Notes: generated from the sequence alone by a model not told the origin. Numbered from the stretch's first letter, positions 46,313-50,917 are shown. The stretch is DNA of 64,000 nt from Rudaea sp. (GCF_047601565.1 NZ_JASGIY010000001.1:3126999-3190998), one strand, 5' to 3'. Numbers and translations are program-made.

Positions 46313-48646
46313 GTGCCGCGCGAATCCAGAAAACCATCGAACAAGACCGCCGGTGCGACGCCGGTCATGCCGCGCGTCGTGCGCGAAGTCGCGATCATCG
46401 CGCTGCTCACCGTGGTCGTGTACCTGATTGCGTGCTTGGCGAGCTACAGCCCGGCCGACCCGGCTTGGTCGCACGCGACTTCCGATCCCGCCAGGCTCCA
46501 CAACATCGGCGGCAAGATCGGCGCGTACCTGGCCGACGTCACGTTCTGGTTCTTCGGCTATCTCGCCTACGCATTCCCGCTGCTGCTGCTCGGCGTGGGC
46601 TGGGCGCTGTTCCGCGACCGCGAGGAGGAATCCGACTCGGCGCTCGAACCCGCGCTGCGACTGATCGGTGGCGTGGCGTTCTTCGTCGCGGGTTGCGGCC
46701 TCGCCTACCTGCAATACGGCCGCCGTGGGGACTTGCCGGCCAATGCCGGCGGCATTCTCGGCACGGCCATCGGCGATGCGCTGCAACGCGGGTTTTCGTT
46801 TCCGGGCGCGACGCTGTTCCTGCTGGCGCTGTTCCTGATCGCGGTCACGCTCGCGACCGGCCTGTCGTGGTTCAAGCTGATGGATGCGATCGGCCGCGGC
46901 ATCTTCCGCGCGCTGGACTGGCTCGGCGCCGGCGCGAAGAAGGTCGAGGACGTGCGCGTGGCGCGTGCGGCGCGCGTCGAGCGCGAGGAAGTGCGCAAGG
47001 TCGAGACGATCCGGCAGACGAAACGCGAGCCGGTCAAAATCGAAGCGCGCGACACCGCGCCGATCGAGCGCAGCAAGCGCGCCGAGGCCGAGGCGCAGAT
47101 TCCGCTGTTCGCCGGCGGCGCCAATCAGGAGTTGCCGCCAATGTCGCTGCTCGACCTGCCCAAGCAGCAGGTCAAGGGCTATTCCGACGAAACGCTCGAA
47201 GCGCTGTCGCGCCAGGTCGAGTTCAAGCTCAAGGATTTTCGCATCGACGCGCAAGTCGTCGGCGTCTATCCGGGGCCGGTGATCACGCGCTTCGAGCTGC
47301 AGCCCGCGCCGGGCATCAAGGGCAGCCAGATTTCCAATCTCGACAAGGACATCGCGCGCGGGCTTTCGGTGATCAGCGTGCGCGTGGTCGACGTGATTCC
47401 GGGCAAGTCGGTCATTGGCCTGGAGATTCCGAATCAGGCCAAGGAGATCGTCTACCTTTCGGAAATCTTGAGTTCCGAACGCTACGATTCGGTGAAATCG
47501 CCGCTCGCGCTCGCGCTCGGCAAGGACATCGGCGGCAAGCCCGTCGTCGCCGACCTCGCCAAGATGCCGCATCTGCTCGTCGCCGGCACCACGGGTTCGG
47601 GCAAGTCGGTCGCGGTCAACGCGATGGTGCTGAGCCTGCTCTACAAGGCGACGGCCAAGGAAGTGCGCCTGCTGATGGTCGATCCGAAGATGCTGGAACT
47701 GTCCGTGTACGAGGGCATTCCGCATCTGCTTACGCCGGTCATCACCGACATGAAGGACGCTGCCAACGGCCTGCGCTGGTGCGTGGCCGAGATGGAGCGG
47801 CGCTACAAGCTCATGGCCGCGGTCGGCGTGCGCAACCTCGCCGGCTTCAACAAGAAGGTGAAGGATGCCGCCGACGCCGGCCAACCCCTGCTCGATCCGC
47901 TGTTCGTGCCGAAACTCGATCTGATGCCGAACGCCGTTGCGAAGCCGCTCGAACCGCTGCCGTTCATCGTCATCATCATCGACGAATTCGCCGACATGAT
48001 GATGATCGTCGGCAAGAAGGTCGAGGAACTGATCGCGCGCCTCGCGCAGAAGGCGCGCGCGGCGGGCGTGCACCTGATCCTCGCCACGCAGCGCCCGTCG
48101 GTCGACGTCATCACCGGCCTGATCAAGGCCAACATCCCCACGCGCATCGCGTTCCAGGTATCGAGCAAGATCGACTCGCGCACGATCCTCGACCAGTCCG
48201 GCGCGGAAGCGCTGCTCGGCCACGGCGACATGCTCTACCTGCCGCCCGGCACCGCGCAGCCCGAGCGCGTGCACGGCGCCTTCGTCAGCGACGACGAAGT
48301 GCACCGCGTCGTCGAACATCTGCGTGCGCAGGGCCGGCCCGAGTACATCGACGGCGTGGTCAACGACGTGCAATCGCTCGGCGACGGCAAGGTCATCGGC
48401 GAATCGGGCCTGCCCGAGGAGGCCGAAGACGGCGAGGGCGGCGACAACGACGAGTTGTACGACAAGGCCGTCGCCATCGTCACCGAAAGCCGCCGCGCCT
48501 CGATCAGCGGCGTGCAGCGCCGCCTCAAGATCGGCTACAACCGCGCCGCGCGCCTGATCGAATTGATGGAAGCGCAAGGCATCGTCAGCGCGCCGCAGCA
48601 CAACGGCAACCGCGAGGTGCTCGCGCCGCCGCCGCCGGAGGTGTGA
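46313..48646 (+). CDS. ftsK: DNA translocase FtsK
   Basis: N-terminal TM domain, [19 protein letters not shown] and gamma domain ([12 protein letters not shown]). Confidence 0.96.
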
Positions 48647-48651
48647 CAATT

Positions 48652-50014
48652 ATGCGCGGTGATCCCGTAATGCATATTTTCGCGATAGGGGTTGCTCTCG
48701 CTTGCATCGTTGCTGTCGTGGCTTTCGGTCGCCCTATATGTCCGTATTGCAGGAGGCGGGGTGGGCGTTATCTACGCCAAACGCAATATGGGCAACCAGA
48801 TAGACGATACAAGACCAACCCGTTCATTTGCCCGCATTGTGATCGTGCTGAGTCGCGAAAGGTTACTGCACTCGATCGGGCTGAATTTTCCGCGGCGGTC
48901 GCCAGTAAGGTTGAGGCGATTAAACAAGCCAAGCGTGGGCCGGCCAAGATCGAGATACTCGATCCTGTGGCGATCAAGCACAGCAAGCGTGCCGAGGTCG
49001 AAGCGCAAATTCCGCTGTTGGCCGGTGGTGCGCAGTTGGAACTCCCACCGATATCTCTACTCGATTTGCCGAAAGAAGAAGGGAAGGTTCCCCTCTCTGA
49101 GATTTTGAGTTCCGAGCGTTACGACTCGATGAAGTCGCCGCTCACACTCGCGTTGGGCAAAGATGTCGACGGCTGCGCCATCGTCGCAGACTTGGCGAAG
49201 ATGCCGCACCTGCTTGTCACCGGCGCCGTGGGCTCGGGCAAGTCCGTCGCAGTCAACGCGATGGTGTTGAGCCTGCTCTACAAGGCGACGGCCAAGTGAA
49301 GTGCGCCTGCTGATGGTCGATCCGAAGATGCTGGAACTGTCCGTGTACGAGGGCATCCCGCATCTGCTCACGCCGGTCATCACCGACATGAAGGACGCCG
49401 CCAACGGTTTGAGATGGTGCGTGGCCGAGATGGAGCGGCGCTACAAGCTCATGTCCGCGGTTGGCGTGCGCAACCTCGCCGGCTTCAACAAGAAGGTCAA
49501 GGACGTGGCCGATGCGGGTCAGCCGCTTCTCGATCCGCTGTTCGCGCCCAAGTCAGACCTGATGCCGAACGCGCATCAGCAACTGCTCGAGCCGCTGCCG
49601 TTCATTGTCATCATCATCGACGAATTTGCCGACATGATGATGATGGTCGGCAAGAAGGTCGAAGAGCTCATCGCGCGTCTGGTGCAGAAAGCGCACGCTG
49701 CCGGTATCCATGTGGTTTTGACAACAGCGCGGCCATCCAAAGACGTTTTTCCCCTCCAAATTGAATCCTTCGTTCATTCGAGGCTGATTTTTCATCTTCC
49801 CGAGCGAAGTGGGTATGCCGCCGCAGTTTTAGGGCTCCATTCGGAATCGTTATTGGAGTTTGGGGACGCCTTTTTTGTGGAGCAACGAAATACCCAAGAG
49901 ATTCGCGTTCACGGCGTTTTCGTCGATGATGCAGAAGTGCGTCGGGTGGCCGACCATTTGCGTGCGCAGTGCAGGCATATCTCGGATACTGCATGGCAAA
50001 GCGAGTCGAAGTGA
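48652..50014 (+). pseudogene. Chimeric FtsK paralogue split into two ORFs (48652-49299 and 49301-50014)
   Basis: Novel TM + CPYC...CPHC N-terminus, then FtsK linker and RecA fold; 1-nt insertion at 49297 creates TGA; alpha and gamma domains absent. Confidence 0.8.
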
Positions 50015-50047
50015 CGGAAATCGATGTGCCATTGGCGGAGGCATGAA

Positions 50048-50251
50048 ATGAGCAAACGCAGGAAAGACGATCCATTTCGAACGTTCCGGGAATGGGAAGG
50101 GGACAAGGATCGTCACGCCTACGAGAAACTTTCCGTGTCGATGCACATCTATACCGATGAAGAAATCGCCGAGTGGGCACGGCTCGATGCGTTCGCGGAA
50201 GGCGAGCGAGAGGCGCTTGAAAAGAAACTCAAAGACAAGACTTGGGAATAA
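50048..50251 (+). CDS. Small charged hypothetical protein
   Basis: 67 aa; GGAGG upstream. Confidence 0.55.
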   Translation: MSKRRKDDPFRTFREWEGDKDRHAYEKLSVSMHIYTDEEIAEWARLDAFAEGEREALEKKLKDKTWE

Positions 50252-50263
50252 CGCTTGCCGCAA

Positions 50264-50917
50264 ATGATGGAAAAGTGGACTCTGATTTTCGCTCTGACTT
50301 TCTGCGGCAATCTGTTCGCCGCCGACACCGCGCGCGCGCGCCTCGATGCGTTTTCCAAAGGCATGACCTCCGTCTCGGCGAACTTCGAGCAGCAGGTCAG
50401 CGATGCGAACAGCGGCAAGACCAAGGCCAGTAGCGGTACGCTGTCGCTGAAGGCTCCGCGCCAGTTTCGCTGGGACACGACCGCGCCGTACAAGCAGCTC
50501 ATCGTTGCCGATGGCGAGAAGGTGTGGATCTACGATCCCGACCTCGAACAGGTCACCGTGCGTGCGCAGGGCACCGAGGAAGCGCACAGCCCGCTGACCG
50601 TATTGACCGACCTGTCCCAGCTCGATCGCGATTTCGCCACGAGCGAGCAGGGCGAGCACGACGGCCAGATCTGGCTGCGCCTCAAGTCGAAGGACAAGGA
50701 GCCGCAGTTCGAATATGCCGACCTCGGCTTCGATTCGTCGGGGCTGGCGAGCATGACGTTCCGCGACACGTTCGGCAATGGCACGCAGATCCATTTTTCG
50801 GCGTGGCAGCGCAATGCGAAGCTGGCGCCCGAGCAATTCAAGTTCGTGCCGCCGAAGGGCGTCGACGTCGTCGGCGATCCGACGCCGGCCGCGGAAGCGC
50901 ATCCGCTCAAGCCGTAG
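50264..50917 (+). CDS. lolA: Lipoprotein chaperone LolA
   Basis: ANFEQ, PRQFRW, VADGEKVWIYDPDLEQVT and FKFVPPKGVDV. Confidence 0.93.
   Translation: MMEKWTLIFALTFCGNLFAADTARARLDAFSKGMTSVSANFEQQVSDANSGKTKASSGTLSLKAPRQFRWDTTAPYKQLIVADGEKVWIYDPDLEQVTVRAQGTEEAHSPLTVLTDLSQLDRDFATSEQGEHDGQIWLRLKSKDKEPQFEYADLGFDSSGLASMTFRDTFGNGTQIHFSAWQRNAKLAPEQFKFVPPKGVDVVGDPTPAAEAHPLKP

Follow-up and report, generated by a model that had tools for sequence, protein, structure and literature searches.

What is the interrupted, ftsK-like gene that lies between ftsK and lolA in Rudaea sp., and was it ever a working one? The stretch of DNA analysed (the window) covers 64,000 nt of this genome, its coordinates are counted from the first letter of the window, and all named features are on the + strand. 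It is part of the 4.09-Mb contig of a 4.26-Mb genome assembled in 2 contigs and 98.5% complete, and its FtsK hits point to the Rhodanobacteraceae. A preliminary description of the window had proposed a chimeric FtsK-derived paralogue in tandem with ftsK, and this was borne out by the open reading frames (ORFs), by blastn and by Pfam. Two ORFs, ORF1 and ORF2, follow the ftsK stop codon and are divided from each other by a single inserted base (Table 1). The motor half of the paralogue has lost two catalytic residues, and the same replacements were found in two FtsK-like proteins from other assemblies. We favour, as somewhat probable, the explanation that an FtsK paralogue without ATPase activity once had a function here and has very recently become a pseudogene, or at best survives as a split gene.

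A diverged motor cassette without two catalytic residues

The segment of ORF2 that follows Walker B, here called the cassette, had no detectable nucleotide similarity to any ftsK. At the protein level it was 37% identical to FtsK and colinear with it without indels, and as the offset to ftsK was constant throughout, it is exactly as long as its FtsK counterpart. ORF2 was aligned to Pseudomonas aeruginosa FtsK (2IUU/6T8B; E 4e-73 for 2IUU), in which Arg620 is the trans-acting arginine finger, Thr630-Gln631 the phosphosensor and Arg632 the DNA-gripping residue (PMC9410874). In the alignment to 2IUU, the arginine finger is replaced by His (49694–49696) and Gln631 by Ala, giving T-A-R for T-Q-R within TTARP (49721–49735). 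Walker A, Glu596 and Asp599 of Walker B, Thr630, Arg632 and Arg548 are retained. The resident ftsK has a normal finger (QKAR) and ATQRP. The RecA C-terminus had been described beforehand as strongly diverged but keeping its motifs (TTARPS, SRLIF and GDAFF); the divergence was confirmed, but these motifs are derived and specific to the cassette, SRLIFHLPE being one of them, and are not catalytic motifs of FtsK.

P0001 and P0011, both full-length FtsK-like proteins encoded in other assemblies, were found to carry relatives of the cassette. P0001 is encoded on a European Nucleotide Archive contig, L017 (ERZ27251952 k141_11360; L017:2232-4568), with the gene order trxB-ftsK-lolA-sulP-rarA, and P0011 comes from NCBI assembly GCA_015689235.1, with the contig order ftsK-GGDEF-lolA. 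Both carry the same His at the arginine-finger site and the same Ala at the phosphosensor site. The three cassettes are mutually 45–48% identical and have in common several derived blocks that are absent from FtsK (AH.AGIH, [AT]TARP, SRL[IV]F[HR]LPE and E[SN]LLE.GDA), and behind the cassette the window tail RHISDTAW aligns with RNVSDTTY of P0011. As both replacements are shared by P0001 and P0011, we read the cassette as a conserved FtsK motor half, predicted to be ATP-binding but hydrolysis-incompetent, rather than as random decay. Hypermutation by a diversity-generating retroelement (DGR) or a deaminase was rejected as its origin, since the differences reach saturation at every position, transversions and whole-codon changes are frequent among them, and three carriers have the same derived residues.

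The contig L017 was compared with its near-orthologue L068, to which it is 94% identical. Ahead of the cassette, the ratio of non-synonymous to synonymous change (dN/dS, omega) was 0.012 (4 non-synonymous and 92 synonymous differences). The cassette itself is replaced relative to L068, with a GC content at third codon positions (GC3) of 0.38 versus 0.87. Over the 70 codons past it, the proportion of non-synonymous differences (pN) was 0.113 versus 0.003 before it, some of the changes hitting otherwise invariant residues of the gamma domain. In overall composition, the L017 cassette is a 41%-GC patch within a 63%-GC gene. In the L017 gene, the first two-thirds look like a true ftsK and the last third like a diverged copy fused to it, whether by genuine recombination or because a k-mer assembler collapsed a tandem pair; either way, a related species has a cassette-bearing copy with a gamma domain beside lolA. 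Both P0001 and P0011 probably derive from hybrid genes or from tandem copies that were collapsed in assembly, and proteins of the sequence given could not be expected to translocate DNA.

Further carriers were not recovered. No unsplit homologue with the same N-terminus or architecture was found in any search, and the whole read-through protein retrieved only ordinary FtsKs together with P0001 and P0011. A protein search with the cassette region by itself returned four ordinary FtsKs. In an exhaustive phmmer search of 1.84 billion representatives, the best identity to the cassette was 47% and, incidental motif matches elsewhere aside, the aligned position held the ordinary ATQRP/STQRP. Among 54 other species of the genus, only ordinary FtsKs matched the cassette protein (37–41% identity). 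A cassette profile (A3), run at the levels of family, order and class on 400 genomes apiece, found no carrier, the species genomes covered amounting with the genus to about 1,250; it scored 151 bits on this genome versus ≤60 bits for ordinary FtsKs in the order-level search, where scores were listed, and no other genome reached the stricter E-value limits set for the family and class. Back-translated cassette patterns gave nothing in JGI metagenomes and IMG/VR, and a looser pattern gave 26 chance hits. A pattern scan of GTDB returned normal TTQRP-type FtsKs, the patterns used being uninformative. Matches in phage and plasmid collections were ≤44% identical and all ordinary FtsK genes, and libraries of defence systems, phages and NCBIfam gave generic FtsK-like matches only. 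Weak hits in the same genus (G001, G042, G062 and G066) were rejected as paralogues, since each proved to be a normal ftsK that either runs off a contig end or has many frameshifts owing to a poor assembly. Several genera of the family (g19, g23 and g27) have a second, larger FtsK-like gene with a frame of 800–980 aa and an ordinary motor half (e.g. G215:C1:13289-13534 and G422:C1:1082998-1083243), which is unrelated to the cassette lineage.

Mosaic identity of the paralogue to ftsK

The remainder of the paralogue is assembled from pieces of unequal likeness to FtsK. The new N-terminus with a hydrophobic helix and CPYC...CPHC, placed on a diverged FtsK linker, was reproduced in the sequence as first described. 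The four cysteines form one Cys4 motif (CPYC-x26-CPHC), and the helix is the only hydrophobic stretch, which makes the N-terminus at most a candidate zinc-ribbon membrane anchor. The N-terminal 88 residues had no homologue among 5.8 billion proteins and none in 40 relatives, the N-terminus of ORF1 had no Pfam or NCBIfam match, and a single-sequence AlphaFold model of ORF1 was poorly folded (mean predicted local distance difference test score, pLDDT, 36). Derivation of the N-terminus from FtsK TM1 or a LolA signal peptide, and of the tail or the small ORF downstream from a decayed gamma domain, was considered and dropped, as the matches were all insignificant. The linker copy has 65–70% amino acid identity to FtsK linkers of the same genus versus 52–54% to those of other genera.

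The offset between ftsK and the paralogue is 1910 nt in the linker versus 1637/1638 nt from the beta domain to the end; the loss of the alpha domain, first put at about 90 aa, therefore amounts to exactly 273 nt, or 91 codons, in frame. PF01580 was matched in both ORFs (cut-off 24 bits), with 66 bits in ORF1 (E 4e-18, profile 2–69) and 144.6 bits in ORF2 (E 4e-42, profile 73–220). The four-transmembrane (4TM; PF13491), alpha (PF17854) and gamma (PF09397) domains gave no Pfam hits in the paralogue, all three being present in the resident ftsK only. The absence of a gamma domain, noted at the outset, thus stands, and a sensitive tblastn of the FtsK C-terminus against 49950–50330 found no remnant of it past HLRAQ.

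Alignment with blastn paired 49092–49704 of the paralogue with nt 1143–1754 of the resident ftsK (613 nt, 86% identity, one gap). A core at about 49240–49680 had been called nearly identical to ftsK; its extent, the one point of the preliminary sequence description to need correction, is smaller, identity being 96% (151/157) in 49243–49400, 93% in 49401–49500, only 77% in 49501–49612 and 91% in 49613–49678. Ahead of the core, 49092–49242 is 78% identical to the resident ftsK and 70–79% to every same-genus orthologue, all equally distant, the orthologues being mutually 81–91% identical. The C-terminal piece 49904–49976 has 75% nucleotide identity to ftsK. The mosaic is not a product of chance, as judged by permutation of the longest identical tract (Table 1) and of the longest identical run of third codon positions (34; p = 4.5e-4). 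Within 49243–49400, the paralogue matches the resident at as many positions (151/157) as the resident matches its nearest orthologue, L007, with 136–142/157 for the other same-genus orthologues, and the paralogue core falls within the clade of the resident and L007. GC3 is 0.84–0.89 in host genes and 0.80–1.0 in the paralogue core and its neighbours; outside the converted parts it is 0.48 in the N-terminus, 0.62 in the linker, 0.52 in the cassette, 0.57 in the tail and 0.60 in the small ORF.

The identity blocks and the permutation tests agree with the earlier proposal that gene conversion best explains the mosaic. The simplest account would be an old, compositionally distinct copy whose middle was overwritten by conversion from a bona fide ftsK, of its own or a very close species, at least twice and at different dates. 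The cassette would then be the oldest stratum, the linker and outer beta domain intermediate and the core recent. Gene conversion between bacterial paralogues is known for tufA/tufB and for the silent pilS cassettes that feed pilE in Neisseria. The present locus resembles both in the patchwork identity of neighbouring paralogues, with a recent homogenised core and old unconverted segments. Unlike pilS/pilE, it shows no sign of programmed or frequent switching, has one partner, and carries a diverged segment that would inactivate the enzyme rather than vary an antigen.

The pattern of substitution was that of coding sequence. Omega between the paralogue and the resident was low, at 0.14 for the N-terminal part of the beta domain and about 0.09 for the linker, values that are partly inherited from ftsK through conversion, so that the cassette and the linker are the informative parts. 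Between the cassettes of the window and of L017, pN was 0.40 versus a proportion of synonymous differences (pS) of 0.94, with no indel over 82 codons. Strict colinearity in frame, the conservation of motifs in the cassette and low dN/dS point to a long history as coding sequence, because neutral sequence of that age would be expected to lose its 45–48% amino acid identity, equal length and open frame.

Table 1. Positions of the features discussed in the text, counted from the first letter of the window
Feature	Position	Strand	Description
Resident ftsK	46313–48646	+	777 aa, complete; Pfam PF13491 (4TM), PF17854 (alpha), PF01580 (beta), PF09397 (gamma)
GGAGG	48637–48641	+	within final ftsK codons, 10 nt upstream of ORF1 ATG
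ORF1	48652–49299	+	215 aa, ends in TGA; starts 5 bases past ftsK stop
Orphan N-terminal region of ORF1	48652–48906	+	85 codons; hydrophobic helix aa 8–26 (19 residues); CPYC 48739–48750; CPHC 48829–48840
Diverged FtsK linker copy	48907–49073	+	corresponds to ftsK nt 685–851; 71% nt identity; pS 0.71, pN 0.16, omega about 0.09
Alpha-domain junction	49074–49091	+	273 nt (91 codons) absent, in frame; no PF17854 hit
Start of beta (RecA-like) domain	49092–49296	+	Walker A GAVGSGKS 49222–49245
Longest tract identical to resident ftsK	49268–49356	+	88 nt, inserted T left out; permutation p = 5e-5; centre of 49243–49400 core
Inserted T	49297–49299	+	T at 49297 creates TGA, 6 codons past Walker A helix
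ORF2	49301–50014	+	237 aa, GTG start
ORF2 first part, remaining beta domain to beyond Walker B	49301–49678	+	Walker B IIIDEFAD 49610–49633 (DEFAD 49619–49633); Arg548 equivalent present; GC3 0.80–0.91
Diverged cassette	49679–49924	+	82 codons after Walker B; GC3 0.52; length as in FtsK
ORF2 tail	49925–50014	+	FtsK-like stretch, then short end RHISDTAW...; without gamma domain
Orphan small ORF	50048–50251	+	67 aa from ATG; 75 aa counted from 50024; inside low-GC insert
lolA signal-peptide codons	50264–50320	+	low GC, unlike those of close relatives; mature LolA conserved

The frame break and the borders of the insert

The one gap in the blastn alignment is an extra T at 49297, which gives AAGTGAAGTG in the paralogue for AAG-GAAGTG in ftsK; the 1-nt insertion, the TGA after Walker A and the GTG 1 nt later were all recovered as initially reported. 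All offsets to ftsK are multiples of three apart from this T, which is therefore the sole frame-breaking lesion, and both ORFs are fully open, together making 452 codons without other stop or indel. The break comes within the RecA core, in the interval from the P-loop helix to the strand that follows it, and the T is outside any homopolymer. In some few-contig assemblies of the same genus (L060, G066:C3:742500-748500; L063, on G062:C1), ftsK is broken by several frameshifts, which are probably uncorrected long-read errors; a low contig number is by itself no guarantee of base accuracy in this genus.

The sequence ahead of the GTG of ORF2 contains no Shine-Dalgarno site. To our knowledge, AAG-UGA is not among the +1 slippery sites, and programmed +1 frameshifting was rejected since AAG-UGA-A gives no re-pairing. 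At the other end, the final ftsK codons CCG GAG GTG TGA (48637–48651 region) contain a GGAGGTG Shine-Dalgarno-like site, and no terminator-like site was found on the + strand between ftsK and ORF1. An ORF with its start a few bases 3' of ftsK would be translationally coupled to it. The GGAGG could permit such coupled translation of ORF1, which may still be translated as a truncated product.

The insert between ftsK and lolA measures 1.6 kb and is lower in GC, which changes from about 0.65 to 0.51–0.60 across 48650–50330. In the close relatives L017 and L068, lolA directly follows ftsK after a gap of 72–78 nt. The signal peptide of LolA is MMEKWTLIFALTFCGNLFA here versus MRVTVLASLLLC... in close relatives, the two being unrelated, and the mature protein is 83–85% identical; the first ~20 codons of lolA are those that differ. 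As the signal-peptide codons differ and mature LolA is conserved, the foreign or diverged tract is taken to span from the ftsK stop to about 50320, where the signal-peptide codons form its probable right edge, and the original 5' end of lolA was apparently lost to it. The flanks of the insert showed no integrase, no repeats and no other sign of a mobile element. The small ORF between the paralogue and lolA has acidic/basic composition; it matched no family in Pfam, NCBIfam, or the defence-system and phage libraries, and had no plasmid match and no relative in 300 genomes of the order.

Because of its compositional strata, the replaced lolA signal-peptide codons and its extreme rarity, the tract would fit one of two histories, either a segment recombined in from a related lower-GC source with the order ftsK-X-lolA, or a long-lived tandem copy in which the parts spared by conversion drifted to low GC.

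Explanations and their bearing on the FtsK family

If intact, the product would begin with a single hydrophobic helix and a Cys4 motif, continue with an FtsK-type linker and a RecA-like beta domain, and be without alpha and gamma domains. With His in place of the arginine finger, such a subunit could bind ATP but not trigger hydrolysis in the neighbouring subunit, and with Ala for Gln631 it could not sense the gamma-phosphate or couple its own nucleotide state to its grip on DNA. It would be a membrane-tethered FtsK-like subunit, dead or braking in a mixed ring and, alone, unable to translocate DNA. The degenerate cassette would represent an old lineage under purifying selection, its surroundings repeatedly overwritten by conversion from the neighbouring bona fide ftsK, and in this genome the inserted T would now split the gene behind Walker A. 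The preliminary idea of a dominant-negative FtsK modulator is mechanistically plausible, having acquired a concrete basis in the changes Arg620 to His and Gln631 to Ala, shared with two other proteins, but the copy in this genome is most simply a young pseudogene.

Like the FtsKs of P. aeruginosa (2IUU/6T8B) and E. coli, the paralogue has a homologous beta domain with Walker A and B, Arg548, Thr630 and Arg632, and its linker is like that of same-genus FtsKs; unlike them, it has no 4TM, alpha or gamma (KOPS/XerD) domain, has His at Arg620 and Ala at Gln631, starts with a new N-terminus and is broken in frame. In type VII secretion, the degenerate FtsK/SpoIIIE-type ATPase domains D2 and D3 of EssC/EccC are regulatory and not catalytic modules. 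The paralogue similarly has a P-loop domain that keeps its nucleotide-binding motifs and has lost hydrolysis residues, which suggests a regulatory or structural role in a ring; unlike D2 and D3, which are fused with an active domain in a secretion system, the paralogue is truncated, stands as a gene of its own next to ftsK and has no secretion genes around it, and hits to the EssC/EccC families (TIGR03928/TIGR03924) were weak. Bacillus subtilis has two active FtsK-family translocases with gamma domains, SpoIIIE and SftA, which are not in tandem and do not exchange sequence. Here too there are two FtsK-family genes per genome, one of them without a multi-span membrane domain, but the paralogue has no gamma domain, lies in tandem with ftsK and exchanges sequence with it.

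Several observations weigh against a formerly functional gene that has recently died. No uninterrupted homologue of this architecture turned up, which leaves the intact protein without a known example, and the orphan N-terminus with its atypical codon usage could be a fortuitous reading frame. The low omega derives partly from constraint on the ftsK partner and from converted tracts. Should the T at 49297 be a sequencing error, the gene is intact. P0001 and P0011 are each on single short metagenomic or metagenome-assembled contigs and may be collapsed assemblies. Lastly, as the cassette is missing from the 54 other species of the genus and from all the family, order and class genomes searched (400 per level), its long-term vertical maintenance would need many losses, or else it spread horizontally.

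That the gene still functions, either because the T is a sequencing error or because both halves are made, with ORF2 re-initiating at its GTG, and cooperate, is in our estimation unlikely. Its product, the modulator of the preliminary description, would then be a membrane-tethered, ATPase-dead subunit that joins or caps rings of FtsK and slows down translocation or the activation of XerCD. A single lesion in 452 codons, a stop and a GTG only 1 nt apart, the GGAGG 10 nt ahead of ORF1 with no terminator after ftsK, and the conservation of the cassette across three lineages would all suit it, and loss of the arginine finger with retention of the ATP-binding motifs is the expected look of a poison or regulatory subunit. 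The split, however, disrupts the RecA core ahead of the strand that follows the P-loop helix, the GTG has no Shine-Dalgarno site, and AAG-UGA is no slippery site that we know of. A random insertion error is not expected outside a homopolymer in a 2-contig, 98.5% complete assembly. Efficient entry into a ring is also made doubtful by the missing alpha domain, which provides FtsK ring and DNA contacts (PMC9410874). Quite unlikely is a relic without function from the start, that is, a partial tandem duplication or foreign ftsK fragment in decay whose constraint is borrowed through conversion. Truncation at both ends, the frameshift, the orphan flanks, the extreme rarity and the fall of GC3 in the unconverted parts toward the expectation of AT-biased mutation are what such a relic would show. 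Against it, the cassette and linker are saturated at synonymous sites and yet keep 45–48% and about 67% amino acid identity, respectively, without indels, the cassette motifs including His and Ala are common to three distant carriers, and neutral decay of that age would leave stops and indels.

It also seems quite improbable to us that the locus represents a rare, arginine-finger-less FtsK paralogue lineage kept beside ftsK as a source of poison or brake subunits for the ring, or as a reservoir to switch translocation off; within that scheme, equally improbable, only the 82-codon cassette would be shielded from homogenisation, and the cassette-bearing full-length FtsKs would be the switched state. 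Very unlikely is the narrower idea of a silent donor cassette whose conversion into ftsK would toggle the translocase to an inactive, finger-less form and back, with P0001 and P0011 as would-be examples of that form. Two full-length FtsKs at the native trxB-ftsK-lolA locus do hold the cassette, with identical boundaries, exchange of sequence between the paralogue and ftsK is evident, and like many silent cassettes the copy is shortened and out of frame. But the relaxed constraint past the L017 cassette (pN 0.113 versus 0.003) fits a hybrid or collapsed tandem better than a clean swap, a single donor is present, none of the three cassettes (just 45–48% identical) is a recent copy of another, and there is neither evidence of switching within a population nor a known benefit to turning the FtsK motor off. 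Least of all do we expect an assembly artefact, which the preliminary description had raised and by which the second copy or its mosaic would come from misjoined reads. Identical repeats of 88 bases can mislead short-read assemblers, and L017 may be a collapsed tandem, but the copy in the window is 14% diverged overall from ftsK, is bordered by unique sequence of 255 nt on one side of the shared part and about 580 nt on the other, and sits in the 4.09-Mb contig of a nearly complete two-contig genome.

The immediate biological weight of the locus is modest, because the copy is broken and the lineage very rare. The locus clearly illustrates how gene conversion between an essential gene and the gene beside it can build up in layers. 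It also carries a warning for annotation, as short-read assemblies may yield hybrid 'FtsK' proteins like P0001 and P0011, whose sequences predict that they cannot translocate DNA. FtsK is usually regarded as a single-copy, highly conserved motor, and in a neighbour that keeps ATP binding but neither the arginine finger nor the phosphosensor, nature would provide a 'dead subunit', a state that has persisted in three diverged carriers. It could serve to find out how many subunits of an FtsK ring must be active, and it would lead one to ask whether cells or mobile elements ever use dead subunits to control chromosome translocation and Xer recombination.

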